The translations under genes were made by a program, and so were the position numbers. Shown piece by piece: positions 3,223-62,241 of a DNA stretch of 64,000 nucleotides. Source of the stretch: Escherichia phage vB-Eco-KMB38; sequence record OR525701.1; one strand, written 5' to 3'. Below the pieces are notes generated by a model that ran no database searches, had not been told where the DNA came from, and saw nothing but the letters and a program-made list of their open reading frames with translations. How positions within the stretch are numbered: the first letter of the stretch is position 1; every line of letters begins with the position of its first letter.

Positions 3223-3246
3223 TCTTAATTGATTAAATCTTATTTT

Positions 3247-3270
3247 GGGAGACTTCGGTCTCCCATTTTT
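3247..3270 (+). terminator. intrinsic terminator after gene 23
   Basis: Perfect hairpin GGGAGAC-TTCG-GTCTCCC (3247-3264) followed by a T-run. Confidence 0.8.
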
Positions 3271-26140: not shown

Positions 26141-26168
26141 TTTATTCTCCAGATGTTTAAGTTGTTTA

Positions 26169-26210
26169 TTGGTACAGGTCTATAATAACATAACCTGTAC
26201 CAAAGTAAAC
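26169..26210 (-). promoter_or_regulatory. early promoter with stem-loop (PeSL-like cassette)
   Basis: -35 GTTTAC (rc of 26205-26210), -10 TATTAT; 10-bp perfect inverted repeat TTGGTACAGG / CCTGTACCAA brackets the -10. Confidence 0.55.
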
Positions 26211-26214
26211 TGTT

Positions 26215-26583
26215 TTATGCAACTTTAATCCAATTGTCTAAATTTAAAACACCTTTGGCTTTCATTTTTTCGATCAGGTTATCTGCTGTAATGCGTCCAT
26301 TTTGATACCATGTAACATCTTCAGAGTAACCAGTTTCTTCGTCAACATATGTTTCTGAACGAATTTTACCGGTAATAATAGTTTTTAATTCGTATGTGTC
26401 ACCTGTGAAAAAGTTTGCTAACACAATTTTCCAAGAGAAATCATCAGAAGGACCTTCAGGGGTCATACAACTTACGATCTCAAATTGCTCTTTGTATAAC
26501 ATCCACTGGAATTCTTTAATTTCGATAGCTTTATAACCGTCGTGGTCTTTACATTTGATGTATGAGTTCAGATTGATTTTCAT
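26215..26583 (-). CDS. hypothetical protein 122 aa, paralog of ORF 25775-26140
   Basis: ATG start with GGAG RBS; own early promoter upstream. Confidence 0.6.
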   Translation of the reverse strand: MKINLNSYIKCKDHDGYKAIEIKEFQWMLYKEQFEIVSCMTPEGPSDDFSWKIVLANFFTGDTYELKTIITGKIRSETYVDEETGYSEDVTWYQNGRITADNLIEKMKAKGVLNLDNWIKVA

Positions 26584-41621: not shown

Positions 41622-41645
41622 TTTATTCTCCTTCACTTTTATTTG

Positions 41646-41683
41646 ATAGGGCTACTATAACATAGCCCTATCTTATTATAAAC
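41646..41683 (-). promoter_or_regulatory. early promoter with stem-loop (PeSL-like), family B
   Basis: 9-bp inverted repeat ATAGGGCTA/TAGCCCTAT around loop CTATAACA; -35-like GTTTAT; homologous to the cassette at 62193-62229. Confidence 0.5.
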
Positions 41684-42069
41684 TACTTTTTAAAAGTTTT
41701 TTGCAAAAGTTCGATGATTTCGTCGACGTTGGTTTCATCTACGATACAATGGATTTTTGTTACACCTAAAGTTATACCTTCGTTAGTAGGTTGAGGCTTT
41801 TCTAAAGTTACCTCAGTAAAGTATTTGAATTCTTCAGAGTAAATCTCAAAATACGTCTCAAGTGGGCCACCAGCCGTGTATTCAGTGCCATCTTCCATAG
41901 TTACACGTACCACACAATCACCAGCACAATCATCACTTTCCATTTCATCTACAACAAAACTAGGTCCGTGCTTCTCTATTAAATTTAGCATCATTACATT
42001 GCAACGGCACTCGTTAGCAAAGTCATTTTTAAATAAAGGGTTAATGATATAAGATTTTCCGATTTCCAT
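41683..42069 (-). CDS. hypothetical protein 128 aa (frd.3-like), Cys-rich N-terminus
   Basis: ATG with GAGGAAATC RBS and early promoter upstream. Confidence 0.55.
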   Translation of the reverse strand: MEIGKSYIINPLFKNDFANECRCNVMMLNLIEKHGPSFVVDEMESDDCAGDCVVRVTMEDGTEYTAGGPLETYFEIYSEEFKYFTEVTLEKPQPTNEGITLGVTKIHCIVDETNVDEIIELLQKTFKK

Positions 42070-45482: not shown

Positions 45483-48400
45483 ATGGTTGACATCAAACGT
45501 AAGTTCAGGGCCGAAGATGGTCTTGACGCAGGCGGTGATAAGATAGTTAACGTTGCGCTTGCTGACCGCACAGTTGGCACCGATGGCGTGAACGTTGACT
45601 TTTTGGTGCAAGAAAACACCGTACAGAATTATGACGATACGCGCGCGTATACAAAAGATTTTATTGTTCTTTATGATAATCGTTTTTATCAAGCTTTAAA
45701 CGATATTCCAGCTCCGGCAGGCCCTTTCTCTTTGGCTAAATGGAAGGCAACTCGTACAGATGCAGAATGGATTACAGTTCAAGGCGGAGATTTCCAATTA
45801 TCAGTAGGTAACTCTATTGCGGTTGATACTTCAGCTGGCACTGATATTAATTTCACTTTGCCTCAAAATCCTTTAGATGGCGATACAGTTATTTTGTCTG
45901 ATATTGGTGGTAGAGTAGGCTATGTAAAAGTTCAAATTACTGCAGAGGCTCAAAGTATTGTAAACTTTAGAGGACAACAGGTTCGTTCAGTTTTAATGAC
46001 GCACCCAAAATCTAAAATGGTCTTCATTTTTAGCAACCGCCTATGGCAAATGTATGTTTCTGATTACGAACGTAATGCAGTCACAGTAACTCCTGCTAAG
46101 CCATATCAGGCGCAACCTAATGATTTTATCATTCGACGTTTTACATCAGCCGCTCCTATTAATATTACATTGCCTCGTAATGCTAATAATGGCGATATTA
46201 TTAATTTAGTGGATTTAGACAAATTAAACCCATTATATCACACAATTGTCAAAACTTACGATGAAACAACTTCTATACGAGAAGCTGGTGTTCATGTAGC
46301 AGAAGGACGTAATACTGCGGAAGCATTCTTTGTTTATGATTCTGCCAATAGTTTATGGCGTGTTTGGGAAGGTGACCAGAAATCTCGTTTACGTATAGTT
46401 CGTAATGATACTGATTTACGCCCTAATGAAGAAGTTCTTGTTTTTGGAACTAATAATGATACAATCTCGACGGTAAATCTTACTTTGCCTACAGATATTT
46501 TGTCTGGCGATACTGTTAAAATATCGTTGAATTATATGCGTAAAGGGCAAACTGTAAAAATTAAAGCTGCTGAAGGCGATACAATTGCTAGCAGTATTTC
46601 TTTATTACAGTTCCCAAAACGTTCGGAGTATCCACCTGATGCACAATGGGTTTCTGTTAGTGAGTTGGAATTTAATGGTGATACTTCGTATGTACCTGTA
46701 CTTGAGTTAGCTTATATAGAAGATTATTCATCTGAAACAAAATATTGGGTAGTTCAACAAAACACCGTAACCGTCGAACGAGTCGATGCATCGAGCAATA
46801 CCACTCGAGCTCGTTTAGGTGTTATTGCTCTTGCTTCTCAAGCGCAAGCAAATGTCGATTTAGAAAATGCTCCTGGTAAAGAACTGGCTATTACTCCGGA
46901 AACATTAGCAAATCGTACAGCAACTGAAACTCGTCGTGGTATTGCTCGTATTGCAACAACTGCACAAGTTAACCAGAATACCGATTTTGCATTCCAAGAC
47001 GACTTGATTATTTCTCCTAAGAAATTGAACGAACGTACAGCAACTGAAACCCGTAGAGGTGTTGCTGAAGTTGCAACTCAGGCTGAAACTAATGCCGGAA
47101 CAGATGATACCACTATTATTACTCCTAAGAAATTGGATGCCCGTCAAGGTTCTGAAGTTTTATCTGGTATTGTAAAATACACATCTACGACTGGTACTAC
47201 AGCTGCTACTATTCGTGGTAATGCTGGGACTAACGTTTATAACAAAGCCGTAGATAATTTAACTATTTCTCCAAAGGCTCTTGACCAGTATAAAGCTACC
47301 CCTACTCAGCAGGGTGCAGTAATTCTTGCTATTGAAAGTGAAGTTATCGCTGGCGAATCACAAGCCGGTTGGGCTAATGCTGTAGTGACCCCTGAAACTC
47401 TGCATAAGAAAACTTCTACTGATGGACGTATTGGTTTAATTGAAATTGCTACGCAAGCAGAAACTAACACTGGAACTGATTATACTAGAGCAGTAACGCC
47501 TAAGACGTTAAATGATAGGAAAGCTACGGAAGGATTATCTGGCATAGCCGAAATTGCTACGCAAGTTGAATTTGATACTGGAACTGACGATACTCGTATC
47601 TCGACTCCACTGAAAATTAAAACTCATTTTGATTCTTCTGACCGTACCAGTGTTAATTCTGATTCCGGACTTATTGAAGAAGGAACCTTGTGGAACCATT
47701 ATACTCTTGATATTTCTAAAGCAAATGAAACACAACGTGGTACACTTCGCGTAGCGACCCAGGCAGAATCTAATGCAGGAACTTTAGATGATGTTCTTAT
47801 TACTCCTAAAAAGCTTTTAGGGACTAAGTCCACTGAAACGTCTGAAGGCGTAATTAAGGTTGCTACTCAGGCTGAAACTGTAACAGGAACTTCTGCTAAT
47901 ACTGCTGTATCACCTAAGAATTTAAAATGGATTGTTCAATCAGAACCATCATGGACTGCTACTACGGCGATTCGTGGATTCGTTAAAACTTCATCCGGTT
48001 CTATTACATTCGTTGGTAATGATACGGTTGGTTCAACACAATCTTTAGAATCATATGAGAAAAATAGCTATGCGGTATCACCATATGAATTAAACCGTGT
48101 ACTTGCTAACTACTTACCGTTGAAAGCTAAAGCAGCTGATAGTAATTTGTTAGATGGTCTAGATTCTCTTCAGTTCATCCGTAGAGACATCGACCAGACG
48201 GTTAATGGTTCTTTAAGTCTTACTAAACAGACCAACCTGAGTGCTCCTTTAGTATCTACAAGCACTGCTTCTTTTGGTTCCGAAGCATCTGTTACTCGTA
48301 GATTAACTCTTAACGATTCTAGCGGTTCCGAAATAGTTTTCACTAAAGGAACCCAATCTCTTAGTAATAAAGAGAATTTCGTTGTTAGAGCATGGGGTAA

Positions 48401-51173: not shown

Positions 51174-54100
51174 ATGGCTACTTTAAAACAAATACAATTT
51201 AAAAGAAGCAAAACTGCAGGAGCACGTCCTGCCGCTTCAGTATTAGCCGAAGGTGAATTGGCTATAAACTTAAAAGACCGTGTACTTTTTACTAAAGATG
51301 ACCAAGGAAATATTATTGATCTGGGTTTTGCTAAAGGTGGTAGTATTGACGGGAATGTTATTCATACAGGCAATTATAACCAAACTGGCGATTATACTTT
51401 AAATGGCGAATGTTATTCATACAGGCAATTATAACCAAACTGGCGATTATACTTTAAATGGCACCTTCACTCAAATTGGCGATTTCAATCTCAAGGGTAT
51501 TGCTCGCGTAACTCGTGATATTATTGCTGCGGGTCAGATAATGACCCATGGTGGCGAACTTATTACAAAAAGTTCAGGTACAGCACATGTTCGTTTTCAT
51601 GATTTAGCTGACCGTGAACGTGGAATCATTTTTTCTCCTGCTAATGATGGATTAACTACACAAGTTCTTAATATTAGAGTTCAAGATTACAAAGCTGGTT
51701 CAGAAAGCACTTTCGCTTTTAATGGAAATGGTTTGTTTTCTTCACCAGAAGTTTTTGGGTGGAAATCTGTATCAACTCCGGTAATTTATACCAATAAAGT
51801 TATCACCAATAAAAAAGTTAAAGATGATTATGACATCTATTCGATGGCAGACAATGTCCCATTGTCTGAAAGCACTACTGCTATTAATCATCTACGTGTC
51901 ATGCGCAATGCAGTCGGTTCTGGTATTTTCCATGAAGTTAAAGATAATGATGGAATAACTTGGTATAGTGGAGATGGATTAGATGCTTATCTTTGGTCAT
52001 TTACCTGGAGCGGCGGAATTAAATCAAGTCACTCAATTTCTATCGGTTTAACACCCGGTAATAAAGATTATTCAATATTAGGACCATCTAGCATTGCTTT
52101 AGGAGATAATGACACCGGGTTTAAATGGCATCAGGATGGATATTTTTTTACGGTAAACAACGGTACAAAAACTTTCCTTTCTGGTCCGGCGGAAACCACT
52201 AGCCTTAGAAAAATGGTTATGGGTTATTCTGTAAATGGTACTGATTTGACTACTCCTCCAACTGAAAACTATGCTCTTGCTACTGTTGTGACATATCACG
52301 ATAATAACGCGTTTGGAGATGGTCAGACTCTTTTGGGATATTATCAAGGCGGTAACTATCATCATTATTTCCGCGGCAAGGGTACCACAAACATTAATAC
52401 TCATGGCGGTTTGTTAGTTACTCCAGGTAATATTGATGTTGTTGGCGGTTCGGTTAATATCGATGGTAGAAATAATGCTTCTACGCTGATGTTTAGAGGT
52501 AACACGACCGGAGCTAGTTCAGTTGATAATATGACAATTTCCGTGTGGGGTAACACGTTTACTAATCCTAGTGTAGGTAATCGTAAAAACGTCATGGAAA
52601 TTTCTGATGCAACTAGTTGGATGAGCTATATTCAAAGACTTACTACTGGTGAAGTAGAAATGAACGTTAACGGTTCATTTGAATCATCTGGTGTTACTGC
52701 TGGAAATAGAGGAGTTCACACAACAGGCGAAATTTCATCTGGAGCAGTGAATGCTCTTCGTATTTGGAATGCAGATTATGGAGTCATTTTTAGACGTTCG
52801 GAAGGTAGTCTTCATATTATTCCAACTGCTTATGGCGAAGGCAAAGATGGCGATATCGGTCCACTTCGTCCGTTTAGTATGTCTTTAGATACAGGTAAGG
52901 TCGTTATTCCTGACCTAGATTTGAGTCATACAACTTTTGCTGAAAATGGTTTTATTAAATTCGGTGGGCATGGTGCTGGTGCCGGTGGTTATGATATTCA
53001 ATACGGCCAAGCAGCTCCTGTTTTCCAAGAAATTGATGATGACGCGGTAAGTAAATATTATCCTATTGTTAAGCAGAAATTCTTACAAGGAAAAGCTGTT
53101 TGGTCTTTAGGTACTGAAATTAATTCCGGGACTTTTGTTTTACACCATCTTAAAGAAGACGGGACCGGTGGTCATACCTCAAGATTTAATGCTGATGGTA
53201 CAGTTAATTTCCCTGATAATGTCCTGGTTGGCGGTGGTGAAGCTGCTATTGCTCGAAATGGTAATATTTTCTCTGATATTTGGAAAGTATTTACATCTGC
53301 AGGCGACGTAACTAATATTCGCGATGCAATAGCTACTCGTGTTTCTAAAGAAGGCGACAAGATGACTGGCACTCTTTGGATTAATAAAGATGCTGCTGGA
53401 ATAGTTCTTAATCCTCCTTTGGCCAGTGATTCATCATTTATTCGTTCTGATACGGCCGGGGCCAATAATTGGTATATTGGTAAAGGCGGTGCCGACAATG
53501 GTCTAGGTTTTTACAGTTATGTTACACAAGGCGGTGTATACATAACAACTAACGGTGAAATATCGCTTTCTCCTCAAGGCCAAGGAACATTTAATTTTAA
53601 TAGAGACCGCCTCCATATAAACGGTACACAATGGACCGCACACCAGGGTGGTGGTTGGGGAAATCAATGGAATCAAGAAGCACCGGTATTTGTAGATTTT
53701 GGTAATGTTGGTAATGATAGTTATTATCCTATTATTAAAGGAAAATCCGGTATTACTAATGAAGGATACATATCTGGTGTAGATTTTGGTATGCGACGCA
53801 TTACTAATACATGGGCACAAGGTATTATTCGTGTAGGTAATCAGGAAAACGGTTACGACCCACAAGCTGTATATGAATTCCATCATAACGGTACTTTTTA
53901 TGCTCCAAGCTTACTTAAGAGCAGTAGAGTATCAGCTGGTGGTGGTGACCCTGCATGGGGCGGGCCGTGTATTGTACTTGGAGATAACGATACCGGTTTG
54001 CTTTGGGAAGCAGACGGTATTTTCAACGCATATGCAAACGGCCAAGGTGTGTTTAGTTTTAGACCTGGTTTAGCTCAGACATTCGGTGATGTTAACTTCC

Positions 54101-58129: not shown

Positions 58130-58762
58130 TCACAGTACGTTAGTTACAAGGGTAATGATTTCTTTGGACACATTAGGGAAGTCAATGTAAGTATATTTAC
58201 CACCGATCTTAATCTTAACATCATTTTCAAGAGAAGTAAACAGCTTTGATTCAGTTTCTGACATGTTGTATGCAAAGATTCTAAGAGCGCCATCTCGTCG
58301 AATTTCAATTTGGCGAATGCCTAGAACTCGTTTAGCGAATCGAACTTCTAAGTTACTACGGTTTTCACCAATTTCTTTAACTTCAACTTTATCTTTAATA
58401 TTTTCAAAAACAAAGTTTGCTAATTCATGCATTTCAGGAGTAACTCCACGTGCTTTTCTAGTGTTACGTTTCTGAAGAAGTTCTGGAGCATTTTCTTGGG
58501 CAAAGAGGTCTGCAGCTTTTTGGATAATATCCATTGCTTCGCCTGTTGCTACAAGTCCGTCACCGGATTTTTCGACTAAACCTTTCTTAATCAATACACC
58601 AATGTTAGAGTTAACAACTGATGCGTTGTATTCTGCTTCCAGAGCTTCACGGACATTGGCAGCAGTGGTGAAGTTGTTCTTAATGATATAAACCATTATT
58701 GCAGCAGTTTTTTCATTCAGAGCGTTTTCAGAAGCTTTGATGATGTAAGTAACTTTAGACAT
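58130..58762 (-). CDS. motA: middle transcription activator MotA
   Basis: 210 aa (T4 MotA 211 aa); N-terminus MSKVTYIIKAS... and NSNIGVLIKKGLVEKSGDGL segment. Confidence 0.9.
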   Translation of the reverse strand: MSKVTYIIKASENALNEKTAAIMVYIIKNNFTTAANVREALEAEYNASVVNSNIGVLIKKGLVEKSGDGLVATGEAMDIIQKAADLFAQENAPELLQKRNTRKARGVTPEMHELANFVFENIKDKVEVKEIGENRSNLEVRFAKRVLGIRQIEIRRDGALRIFAYNMSETESKLFTSLENDVKIKIGGKYTYIDFPNVSKEIITLVTNVL

Positions 58763-58799
58763 TTTATTTCTCCAAATTAGTATTTGTTTTGATAGGTCT

Positions 58800-58828
58800 A
58801 TAATATCATGTTTGAAGCAAAAGTAAAC
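58800..58828 (-). promoter_or_regulatory. early promoter GTTTAC-N17-TATTAT upstream of motA
   Basis: rc GTTTACttttgcttcaaacatgaTATTAT then AGACCTATCAAAAC leader; part of a duplicated cassette. Confidence 0.55.
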
Positions 58829-58865
58829 TTTATTTTGGGCTCTTTTTCAAAAGCCCTGGTAAAAT

Positions 58866-59081
58866 TTACAAACTCATTTCTTTAATAAGGCTAATAAGTT
58901 TTGCCTTTTTAGAACGAAGCTTTTCTAAATGATGACCATTTGAACCGCGAACCACTAAAGAATTGATTTCAACTTCTAAGAAATTTAATTCTTCAACAAG
59001 TGCTTTACGGAGAGCATTCATACCAGGTTTGACTTTACCGAAACGAGTAGTTGTGTTTTGGGTTAATTTCATTTTAGACAT
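58866..59081 (-). CDS. hypothetical protein 71 aa sharing promoter/leader with motA
   Basis: Starts MSKM..., same leader and RBS as motA (MSKV...). Confidence 0.55.
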   Translation of the reverse strand: MSKMKLTQNTTTRFGKVKPGMNALRKALVEELNFLEVEINSLVVRGSNGHHLEKLRSKKAKLISLIKEMSL

Positions 59082-59120
59082 TTTATTTCTCCAATTTGGT
59101 TGTTTTGTTTTGATAGGTCT

Positions 59121-59149
59121 ATAATATCATGTTTGAAGCACATGTAAAC
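59121..59149 (-). promoter_or_regulatory. early promoter GTTTAC-N17-TATTAT (duplicate of the motA promoter)
   Basis: Near-identical to 58800-58828. Confidence 0.55.
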
Positions 59150-59174
59150 TGTTTTGTGAGAAAAATGCACAAAA

Positions 59175-59190
59175 GGGAGCCGAAGCTCCC
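59175..59190 (-). terminator. terminator after gene 52
   Basis: GGGAGC-CGAA-GCTCCC; rc followed by UUUU. Confidence 0.7.
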
Positions 59191-59266
59191 TAATCATGAT
59201 TGTCCAACCAATACAGCCAAATCACTAGTGCAGCTATTGCACCGAGAAATCCTAAGGCTAGGGCAC

Positions 59267-60592
59267 TCAAAGTGCCTCCAAGTCTTTAGTGTACTCTGTC
59301 ACAACATCAGTAGACTTCCAATACTCATTTTCTTCTTTCTTAGCTTTAGCTTCTTCTGCTAGTTTACGTGCTTCATCGGAAGTGATATGGAAGATGTTAA
59401 GACCTACCAGTTTATCAACATGTTCTTTATACATTTCGATTTGTGCTAGCTCTTCAGTCAAAGCTTTACGGGTCTTGCCCTGAATCACAATTTCGCCACT
59501 GATAACTTTTTTGATGAAGTGTGCCTTAGCAAAAGCAAGTTTAAATGCTTTTTCAGATTCAAGGATTTTGTTATCAATACGTTTCTGAACGTAAGTCTTA
59601 CGGACTTCAACAAAATCTTTGATTAAGTCCACTACGTTATCGTAGACCGCTAATTTACCCTTTTCATTAATCACTGTGATGTTTTGTGAACGACGTTCGA
59701 TGAGACTAAAATCTTTCATGATTTTTTCATGACGTAGCTCTTCATCATCAGGAAGCGAGTACTCTTTACGGAACTTCACCTTAAACCCAAAGCCGTGTTC
59801 ACCGCAATCATCTTCCCATGAGATTAGACCTTTGTCTTCCAACGGGTCAAGAACCTTACTCACATACGTTTCACGGTCGAATTTATATGGGATTTCAGTT
59901 ATCTGCATTTGAGTGCGAGATGTGAACTTATATGTTCCGTGAATCTCATAACGTCCATCAACTTCATGCACTTCACCACGGAATTCCGGGAATTCAACTT
60001 TTGGTTTAGTGACATTTTTACCTTGAAGAGCTTGTAATACGGCCTTTTTGACTGATTTAAAACTATGAGGCAGAATATTTGTTGCGTAACCGGTTGCAAT
60101 ACCAGAGACGCCATTCAAAAGAACTGTCGGAATAATAGGAAGATAGAATTTTGGTGGAACGTGTTCTTTATCTTCATGTGCTGGAGCATATTCAGTATCT
60201 TTATAGACATTATAGAAATTTTTACTTACACGAGCAAAAATATAACGAGATGCTGCAGCTTTTTGGACTGTTCTAGAACCAAAGTTGCCTTGGCCGTCTA
60301 ACAGTGGATAGTTGTTATTCCACGTATTAGCCATCAATGCACCTGCATCTTGTGCAGAAGATTCGCCATGATGATAACCTAAATCAGCAACACCGCCTGC
60401 AATTGACGCAAGTTTATGAAATTTTTCTTTATTACCACGAGCCAAATCTAACGCACGATGAACCACAAAACGTTGAACCGGCTTAAATCCATCAATCATG
60501 TTTGGGATTGCACGGTTTTCAACGGTGTACATCGCATATGCTAAGGCTTCGTTATCAATAATACTTTTTAGATTACGAGAATTCAATTGCAT
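59267..60592 (-). CDS. 52: DNA topoisomerase II medium subunit gp52
   Basis: 441 aa (T4 gp52 442 aa); GyrA-like N-terminal motifs (AMYTVENRAIPNMIDGFKPVQR) with active-site Tyr region. Confidence 0.95.
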   Translation of the reverse strand: MQLNSRNLKSIIDNEALAYAMYTVENRAIPNMIDGFKPVQRFVVHRALDLARGNKEKFHKLASIAGGVADLGYHHGESSAQDAGALMANTWNNNYPLLDGQGNFGSRTVQKAAASRYIFARVSKNFYNVYKDTEYAPAHEDKEHVPPKFYLPIIPTVLLNGVSGIATGYATNILPHSFKSVKKAVLQALQGKNVTKPKVEFPEFRGEVHEVDGRYEIHGTYKFTSRTQMQITEIPYKFDRETYVSKVLDPLEDKGLISWEDDCGEHGFGFKVKFRKEYSLPDDEELRHEKIMKDFSLIERRSQNITVINEKGKLAVYDNVVDLIKDFVEVRKTYVQKRIDNKILESEKAFKLAFAKAHFIKKVISGEIVIQGKTRKALTEELAQIEMYKEHVDKLVGLNIFHITSDEARKLAEEAKAKKEENEYWKSTDVVTEYTKDLEAL

Positions 60593-61659: not shown

Positions 61660-61687
61660 TTTGTGTTCCTCGTGTTTTGATAAGACT

Positions 61688-61717
61688 ACTATACCATAAT
61701 CCTACTGTGTTGTAAAC
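61688..61717 (-). promoter_or_regulatory. early promoter GTTTAC ... TATAGT
   Basis: rc GTTTACaacacagtaggattatggTATAGT then AGTCTTATCAAAAC leader. Confidence 0.5.
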
Positions 61718-61909
61718 AATTAAATTACATTAAAATATGTTAAAGCCAACCATGTTCCAGTGAACGAACATGCGATGTAAAAACCAGTATCACAAATTGT
61801 TCTTAGTACAATAAGAAGTGCATTTTTCATAAGTACCTCAATGCAATTGAAAATATTATACAAATCATAGGGATACTAAGCAACCATATTCCGATCCACA
61901 TTTTAGAGC

Positions 61910-62173: not shown

Positions 62174-62192
62174 GATGTTATCCTCTTTTAGA

Positions 62193-62229
62193 TAGGACTA
62201 CTATAACATAGTCCTACTTAGTTGTAAAC
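62193..62229 (-). promoter_or_regulatory. early promoter with stem-loop (PeSL-like), family B
   Basis: 8-bp inverted repeat TAGGACTA/TAGTCCTA around loop CTATAACA; -35 GTTTAC. Confidence 0.5.
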
Positions 62230-62241
62230 ACTTTTATGAAA

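Follow-up and report, generated by a model that had tools for sequence, protein, structure and literature searches.

A duplicated promoter-leader-start cassette of the PeSL type around an optional gene upstream of motA in RB69-like phages

The DNA studied here is a stretch of 64,000 nucleotides from Escherichia phage vB-Eco-KMB38 (OR525701.1; hereafter the window, to whose numbering positions refer). On its minus strand it contains motA, the gene for the activator of middle transcription, and an open reading frame (ORF) of 71 aa, here called orf71. Both genes start with a nearly identical cassette that comprises an early promoter, a leader, a Shine-Dalgarno (SD) sequence and the first three codons, and this duplicated cassette is the subject of the present study. 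In this region the window is 100% identical to Escherichia phage AlbertHofmann (Mosigvirus, RB69-like). As transcribed, the gene order is gene 52, orf71, motA and then homologues of arn.4-arn.1. A first, sequence-only reading of the window placed the 71-aa ORF downstream of motA; this is true only of plus-strand coordinates, since orf71 is transcriptionally upstream. The genes, cassettes and stem-loops of the locus are, in the order of transcription:

59267 to 60592, minus strand: gene 52 (medium subunit of topoisomerase II), a conserved gene that bounds a variable interval on its upstream side
59175 to 59190, minus strand: stem-loop GGGAGC-UUCG-GCUCCC followed by UUUUGUGCAUUUUU, 5' of cassette B and after gene 52 (-17.1 kcal/mol, z -3.2)
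59073 to 59158, minus strand: cassette B, 86 nt, with UP-like tract, early promoter, leader, SD and ATG TCT AAA of orf71 (gapped alignment, repeat search)
58866 to 59081, minus strand: orf71, optional cargo gene, 71 aa, phrog_6200 (predicted helical hairpin)
58837 to 58856, minus strand: stem-loop GGGCUUUU-GAAA-AAGAGCCC between orf71 and cassette A (-12.3 kcal/mol, z -2.7)
58754 to 58837, minus strand: cassette A, 84 nt, with UP-like tract, early promoter, leader, SD and ATG TCT AAA of motA (gapped alignment)
58130 to 58762, minus strand: motA, activator of middle transcription, 210 aa (Pfam MotA_activ, 2.4e-39, and MotCF, 2.2e-8; annotation)

The near-identical repeat of ca. 75 bp that had been reported at 58755-58828 and 59074-59149 is confirmed and proved to be slightly longer. 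Gapped alignment of the coding (minus) strand of the two copies (84 and 86 nt), which are in direct orientation, gave 76 identical positions and one 2-nt gap, with two exact blocks of 37 nt (TGCTTCAAACATGATATTATAGACCTATCAAAACAAA) and 22 nt (TTGGAGAAATAAAATGTCTAAA). The similarity is not limited to the promoter hexamers but continues through the promoter spacer and the initially transcribed region to the leader, the SD and codons 1-3. The local alignment score of the two copies is 121, compared with a mean of 18.2 for shuffled sequences (sd 2.7, max 38, n = 2000); among unrelated 151-nt tiles of the window the highest score is 43. Among 16 early-promoter-like sites of the window compared pairwise, the next pair scored 67. 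Once tandem coding repeats are set aside, the two cassettes form the strongest dispersed direct repeat of the window. These tandem direct repeats lie within coding sequence at 51353-51480 and 46887-47156 (plus strand), have a 55-nt unit with an internal 18-19-nt periodicity and units at 108-120 nt spacing, and probably encode repeated structural motifs. The two-copy layout is not an assembly artefact, because it is present in ca. 76 independently sequenced genomes. The smaller elements of the cassettes are located as follows:

59144 to 59149, minus strand: -35 hexamer GTTTAC, cassette B
59121 to 59126, minus strand: -10 hexamer TATTAT after TGn, cassette B
59104 to 59140, minus strand: 37-nt exact block, copy B (promoter spacer, -10, start region), class I crossover zone
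59082 to 59092, minus strand: GGAGAAATAAA, SD and candidate RegB/S1 site of orf71 (9/11 positions of GGAGRAYARAA)
59073 to 59094, minus strand: 22-nt exact block TTGGAGAAATAAAATGTCTAAA, copy B (SD, spacer, first 3 codons), class II crossover zone
58823 to 58828, minus strand: -35 hexamer GTTTAC, cassette A
58800 to 58805, minus strand: -10 hexamer TATTAT after TGn, cassette A
58783 to 58819, minus strand: 37-nt exact block, copy A
58763 to 58773, minus strand: GGAGAAATAAA, SD and candidate RegB/S1 site of motA (9/11 positions of GGAGRAYARAA)
58754 to 58775, minus strand: 22-nt exact block, copy A

Each copy reads GTTTAC-N17-TATTAT on the minus strand, with a spacer that ends in TGn. The A+T content upstream of the -35 is 72% over a 25-nt tract in copy B and 100% in copy A (AAAATAAA). 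Early promoters of T4 are composed of an UP element, a -35, TGn and a -10, and are used by the host polymerase right after infection (PMC2988021; features also in PMC1524935). The corresponding features of a T4-type early promoter (an UP-like A-rich tract, GTTTAC, TGn and TAnnnT) are present 5' of both orf71 and motA. The leaders of ca. 40 nt are essentially without predicted structure (-0.6 and -1.5 kcal/mol, not better than shuffles). GGAG occurs 9 nt 5' of the ATG in both copies and is followed by the codons ATG TCT AAA, so that TTGGAGAAATAAAATG, comprising the SD and start codon, forms the 3' end of both. The earlier proposal that each copy holds an early promoter, a ribosome binding site and the first codons (MSK) is borne out by these observations, and both genes would, as far as the sequence can tell, receive the same signals.

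Other readings of the promoter region were rejected. A plus-strand promoter on TATAAT is only a weak 9/12 site without TGn, compared with scores of 10/12 and 9/12, with TGn, for the gene-facing minus-strand sites. The spacers of both promoters contain a MotA-box-like TGCTTCA (58813-58819 and 59134-59140, minus strand), within TTTTGCTTCA in copy A and TGTGCTTCA in copy B; the spacer sequence is TGCTTTA in Dhakavirus and TGCTTCA in Marfa. In middle promoters the MotA box (a/t)(a/t)(a/t)TGCTT(t/c)A is centred at -30, 11-13 nt 5' of TAnnnT (PMC1524935). Here it is only 7 nt from TATTAT and there is no TAnnnT at the required distance; because of this wrong spacing from the -10, the cassettes are not MotA-dependent middle promoters. 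A search of Rfam revealed no family matching the cassettes, only one sub-threshold chance match outside them. Together with the unstructured leaders, this excludes a structured leader or known RNA family.

The endoribonuclease RegB, in its S1-dependent mode, recognises GGAGRAYARAA in single-stranded RNA, and the motA RNA of T4 is a good substrate (PMC1702504). RB69 encodes RegB as well (PMC3014915). The sequence GGAGAAAUAAA, which lies within the SD of the unstructured leaders, agrees with this consensus at 9 of the 11 positions. RegB probably controls both cassettes, which seems a reasonable extrapolation from T4.

The layout was compared in ca. 150 related phage genomes. Searching with the 821-nt interval showed that ca. 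75 Mosigvirus records hold it whole and that a similar number place both its ends on only ca. 502 bp; the latter therefore miss one repeat period (319-321 bp). Counted by gene, orf71 occurs in 75 Mosigvirus records and, as a divergent allele, in ECCR664, so that about half of the Mosigvirus records have it. It is also encoded in 17 Dhakavirus records, and no other of the 50,697 phage records searched contains it. The gene-52 stem-loop is joined directly to a single cassette and motA in 78 records. RB69, with an intergenic gap of 185 bp, has this short form. The segment lost consists of orf71, its stem-loop and one cassette. It had been suggested that the repeat could mediate deletion or duplication of motA by homologous recombination. 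Natural variation strongly supports its role as a recombination substrate, but it is orf71 and the promoter copy of motA that lie between the repeats, motA itself stays intact, and none of the 93 orf71-carrying records (93 records, 93 places) holds a duplication product.

The two copies differ diagnostically (B vs. A) in the upstream tract (ctcacaaaaca vs. cccaaaataaa), in a 4-nt spacer marker (atgt vs. tttt) and in the leader, which is CAAAACAAAACAACCAAATTGGAG in the B type and CAAAACAAATACTAATTTGGAG in the A type. These differences divide the short forms into two classes. In class I (RB69, PTK and pEK20) upstream sequence and spacer of the B type are joined to an A-type leader, which places the crossover in the 37-nt block. 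In class II (WFL6982, JK42, p000v, 348Ecol098PP, mar006P2 and two IMG/VR contigs) B-type sequence persists through the leader and is followed by motA codon 4, which places the crossover in the 22-nt SD-start block. Class-specific BLAST queries assigned three phages to class I and ca. 70-75 records to class II, the latter count being approximate since ca. 10 long forms whose motA copy has a B-type leader share its identity band. Identity or span in BLAST with a 206-nt query did not separate the classes; the short class-specific queries did better. In IMG/VR just two further motA loci were found, and both of them are short forms of class II. Every short form has a complete promoter-leader-start region restored before motA. 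The first 155 nt of motA do not follow the long or short state, as PTK matches AlbertHofmann, RB69 p000v, and JK42 SA79RD.

The long forms differ among themselves in the types of their leaders. In the order upstream copy, motA copy, these are (B,A) in AlbertHofmann, SA79RD and ECCR664, (B,B) in PHB12, NHEP11 and UGJNEcP1, and (A,A) in NHEP29. The copies are identical at 75/77 positions in PHB12 and NHEP11 and at 72/75 in NHEP29. The upstream copy of ST2 has an A-type leader, judged by BLAST match only. Both copies of NHEP11 carry a private -10 variant, TAGTAT, and the 4-nt spacer marker assorts independently (tttt in copy B of SA79RD and in mar006P2). Within Mosigvirus the paralogous copies have the same 22-nt SD-start block, and this block shows ca. 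7/21 differences from the orthologous orf71 cassette of Dhakavirus, where the protein starts with MNK instead of MSK. Such paralogue identity combined with orthologue divergence is a pattern of concerted evolution. The long forms show gene conversion in both directions.

Each cassette is preceded by a stem-loop. The one on the side of gene 52 has a U-rich tail (UUUUGUGCAUUUUU), and the annotations of SA79RD and WFL6982 list it as a rho-independent terminator; it is probably the terminator of gene-52 transcripts. The stem-loop of cassette A is annotated as a terminator in SA79RD and is conserved before the motA promoter of Dhakavirus and EcS1. Its lack of a U-run makes a role as attenuator or stability hairpin more likely. 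In RB69 the stem-loop after gene 52 (ca. locus 3230-3250, minus strand) reads GGGAGC-CGAA-GCTCCC, compared with GGGAGC-TTCG-GCTCCC in the other Mosigviruses examined. Its 4-nt loop is reverse-complemented, a pattern expected of a hairpin or template-switch inversion, and the UUCG tetraloop is altered in the RNA. Between gene 52 and this stem-loop the window contains an unannotated 26-codon hydrophobic ORF (59190-59270, minus strand; LSALALGFLGAIAALVIWLYWLDNHD) preceded by GGAGG. Its TTG start overlaps the gene-52 stop, its own stop reaches into the stem-loop by one base, and a search of PHROGs gave no match. At the same position 348Ecol098PP and the Dhakaviruses have an unrelated 34-aa hydrophobic ORF (MSLGVEFLLLCIFAVILGLATGLAIGLIAAHFKK) and T4 has motA.1.

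Composites of a stem-loop, an AT-rich tract, an early promoter, an SD and a start codon are known as PeSLs; they were described in RB49/phi1 and later extended to PST/T4 and nt-1/KVP40 (PMC2839356, PMC4122927). Recombination between flanking PeSLs deletes an ORFan, and chimeric PeSLs and mini-circles have been described (PMC2839356, PMC4122927). The two stem-loops at motA would be the stem-loop parts of PeSL B and PeSL A, an assignment that the sequence-only reading had not made although the published architecture matches both copies. Other early promoters of the window (41642-41695, 62188-62241, 61676-61729 and 26165-26219, minus strand) have an 8-10-bp inverted repeat that brackets the -10, for example GATAGGGCTA-tgttatag-TAGCCCTATC at 41683. 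They form moderately similar families (pair scores 65-67) and represent the PeSL subclass with a stem-loop over the -10.

The product of orf71 belongs to a PHROGs family without assigned function (phrog_6200). Its search against Pfam gave nothing above threshold and that against PDB sequences no significant match. AlphaFold2 models the protein as a generic helical hairpin, and in BFVD only the Dhakavirus homologue matches this model significantly. Between Mosigvirus and Dhakavirus 35 codons of orf71 are identical, 20 differ synonymously only and 16 non-synonymously, and the differences at codon positions 1/2/3 number 16/12/34, which indicates that purifying selection acts on the gene. It would be a dispensable early gene under purifying selection and a candidate for a host-specific role. 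The third orf71 allele, in ECCR664 (ca. locus 901-1104), is 86.8% identical, with a divergent C-terminus and an earlier stop (...RSKRQNLLALLKK*). Apart from this, the ECCR664 locus has the usual long-form layout; its record comprises only 134 kb, and the 2-kb stretch retrieved from it carries no annotated features. In the NHEP29 record (locus 522-851) orf71 is annotated as 330 nt, extended 5' across its own promoter, and in those of ATK47 and ATK48 it is without annotation. The annotation of Mosigviruses needs correction, since orf71 is missed in some records and starts too far upstream in others.

The cargo of the interval between gene 52 and motA differs among T4, Mosigvirus, Dhakavirus, Kanagawavirus, Kagamiyamavirus, Marfavirus and Moonvirus. 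T4 has motA.1 only, IME523 three ORFs and three promoters, EcS1 two ORFs, NM4.3 several ORFs, and Marfa small membrane-peptide ORFs behind a second cassette. Dhakaviruses possess two or three such cassettes at this locus, and the layout of ABTNLsp5 has two. The third cassette of the Dhakavirus IME08 is chimeric: its left half is formed by the stem-loop and -35 of the motA type, and its right half shares ca. 60 nt of identical sequence with the orf71 cassette. It would drive an additional ORF of 73 aa, and of the old motA cassette just the right part is left. This arrangement looks like an insertion through the same core. In the IME08 record (locus 1138-1426 and 1426-2133) this extra ORF, behind the second cassette, is unannotated, and the motA coding sequence is annotated from 1426, across the promoter; its true start is at 1501. 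The single motA cassette of HMGUkp2 equals the upstream cassette of Marfa on its left and the motA leader of Marfa on its right, which suggests a parallel cassette-bounded indel in Klebsiella phages, a case that serves as supporting evidence only, the junction comprising just a few bases. HMGUkp2 is without the 30-aa membrane-peptide ORF of Marfa. As judged from this comparison, the 52-motA locus appears to be a general cargo slot.

We consider it likely that the two PeSL-type cassettes both co-regulate orf71 and motA and serve as substrates of homologous recombination, through which cargo is gained, lost or homogenised. Unmodified sigma-70 RNA polymerase of the host would fire each cassette immediately after infection, providing each gene with the same unstructured A-rich leader and GGAG SD, a likely target for shut-off by RegB and ribosomal protein S1; sharing promoter and leader, orf71 and motA would therefore be co-regulated. 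Transcription of motA in the long form probably includes read-through from the promoter of cassette B as well. Unequal crossover in the 22-nt or the 37-nt block would remove orf71 together with its stem-loop and one cassette, a loss of 319 or 321 bp, respectively. Since the repeat covers promoter, leader and the codons up to the third, a crossover at any point would rebuild the promoter, leader and start of motA. Non-reciprocal exchange (gene conversion) would homogenise the copies, and the reverse reaction, insertion of a cassette with an ORF, would provide extra cargo at this site in other phages. The comparisons indicate that recombination between the copies has removed orf71 repeatedly and scarlessly and has homogenised them in both directions.

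Several other explanations have to be weighed against this one. The resemblance could merely reflect the consensus of T4-type early promoters and a common SD, without any specific duplication, and other early promoters of the window indeed have GTTTAC, TGn, TAnnAT, start regions similar to TAGACCTATCAA and GGAG or GAGGA as SD. The score of 121 for the two cassettes, however, compares with at most 67 for the other pairs of the 16 promoters and at most 43 for unrelated tiles, and the copies have in common a non-consensus spacer, the leader and three codons. The pair scores and the window-wide tiling rule out the generic consensus as the cause, and we regard this explanation as extremely improbable. 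Selection for identical regulation could by itself keep the copies similar, recombination between them being irrelevant. In favour of this, several genera (Marfa, Dhakavirus, NM4.3) have a motA cassette of conserved DNA sequence, and immediate-early expression is plausibly useful to both genes. However, both leader types occur at both positions, and since all three combinations, (B,A), (B,B) and (A,A), are found, neither type is required at a given gene. The mosaics, the private -10 change in both copies of NHEP11 and the chimeric cassettes of the short forms with their two different breakpoints therefore bear the signature of exchange, not of independent purifying selection, which makes selection alone very unlikely.

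Many homing endonucleases exist in T4-like genomes, and the boundaries of the module are precise, so that a site-specific mechanism (homing endonuclease, integrase or transposase) might be thought to move orf71, with the repeats as target-site duplication or attachment sites. Against this, neither the module nor its immediate surroundings contain a gene for a nuclease or recombinase, and the 71-aa helical hairpin has no enzyme signature. The junctions fall in at least two places inside the repeat and the conversion tracts vary, as expected of homology-dependent exchange, and a target duplication of 84 nt that is also a complete promoter is implausible. This mechanism can hardly be given credence. 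A more serious alternative reverses the direction of change: the single-cassette form would be ancestral, and the long form would have arisen by insertion of a module of cassette and orf71, e.g. from a PeSL mini-circle or by double crossover with a Dhakavirus-like donor, the repeat being the footprint of integration. The PeSL model permits insertion as the reverse of excision (PMC2839356), T4 lacks orf71 yet has cassette-B-like sequence upstream of its motA promoter, and IME08 has apparently gained another ORF through the same core. On the other hand, orf71 and two cassettes are common to Mosigvirus and Dhakavirus, and the amino-acid identity between these genera is similar for orf71 (72-77%) and MotA (70%), which is what vertical co-inheritance would produce. 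Dhakavirus and EcS1, too, have in front of their motA promoter the stem-loop and UP tract of cassette A, which the short forms lack. The upstream tract and spacer of cassette A most resemble the motA cassette of Klebsiella phage Marfa, with a weaker resemblance in the leader. The two junction classes require at least two exchanges in either direction. An ancestral short form is thus unlikely, though less so than the other alternatives. For these reasons (the similar divergence of orf71 and MotA, the layout shared by two genera and the parts of cassette A found before motA elsewhere) we consider the long form to be the older in Mosigvirus and the short forms to be derived deletions, with gain possible in some lineages.

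Some observations weigh against deletion and conversion by recombination between co-regulating cassettes as the full explanation. The cassette-B-like sequence upstream of the single motA promoter of T4 means that loss versus gain is not settled for every lineage. The motA flanks differ too little (0-7 in 155 nt) for a reliable count of events or a firm phylogeny. Class II is far commoner than class I despite its shorter homology block; therefore, one old deletion that later spread could explain most short forms. The stem-loop of cassette A has no U-run, and a simple terminator scan of the window called neither stem-loop. The match to the RegB consensus is imperfect (positions 7 and 8 deviate), and regB was not located in this genome, where its presence was not specifically tested. 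All functional steps are founded on sequence and on comparison with T4 and RB49.

The locus offers an unusually well-replicated natural record of PeSL-mediated modular shuffling (ca. 150 genomes, one genus), and this at the promoter of the gene that drives the switch from early to middle transcription. An essential regulator can adjoin a plastic cargo slot without risk, because every crossover would rebuild promoter, leader and start codon. The site may therefore be regarded as a natural, tolerated place for payload insertion under immediate-early control in RB69-type therapeutic or model phages. A more far-reaching proposal is that the pair of cassettes is not just a passive substrate of recombination but a cargo slot at motA that is maintained and repairs itself, in which conversion in both directions keeps the copies similar, balancing selection holds orf71 on and off at ca. 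50:50, and MotA feeds back through TGCTT(C/T)A in the spacer. This would imply frequent scarless excision and re-insertion, a balance for orf71 of, e.g., host-dependent benefit against cost, and feedback of MotA on its own early promoter and on orf71; we regard it as improbable.

Cassettes A and B possess every sequence-testable feature of PeSLs. The sigma-70-type promoter of both copies fits the T-even consensus TTTACW-N17-TAYWAT (PMC4122927); there is an AT-rich tract, an adjacent stable stem-loop and a 3' SD with start codon; and the locus is a hyperplastic region with a variable non-essential ORF, in which relatives have a single chimeric cassette. Neither motA nor RB69 occurs in the main text of PMC2839356 and PMC4122927 (0 occurrences), and our literature searches, whose coverage was partial, found no description of this locus in RB69-type phages. 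The PeSL pair around ORFan192 in RB49/phi1 (Arbiol et al., 2010; PMC2839356) has the same composite structure and direct orientation, likewise surrounds a small non-essential ORF in a hyperplastic region, and is replaced in a close relative by a chimeric cassette, with crossovers between the -10 and the SD/ATG. It differs in having a perfect TTGACA instead of the T-even GTTTAC as -35 and another ORFan instead of the essential regulator motA as downstream gene. At motA, moreover, the stem-loops lie upstream of the UP tract and are without polyG/polyC stems, the identity reaches 6 nt into the coding sequence, and the evidence of recombination is comparative. The PeSLs of PST/T4 and nt-1/KVP40 (Comeau et al., 2014; PMC4122927) also have the stem-loop just 5' of the promoter and are tied to indels between close relatives; that study compared a pair, whereas the ca. 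150 genomes used here reveal two junction classes and bidirectional gene conversion.

The T4 motA promoter (PMC1702504; PMC3014915, PMC2988021) is similar in its GTTTAC, its GGAG SD followed by an A-rich tract, and its T-run stem-loop upstream. It differs in being a single cassette without orf71 and with another spacer and leader, and cleavage by RegB is inferred for Mosigvirus. Deletions between short direct repeats are familiar in T4, the classical rII deletions being an example. They resemble the short forms described here as homology-dependent losses between direct repeats in a highly recombinogenic phage, but the repeats at motA are regulatory cassettes and the product is viable, fully regulated and persists as a common natural allele. 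The locus adds a clear new case to a mechanism that was known before from T4-like phages.

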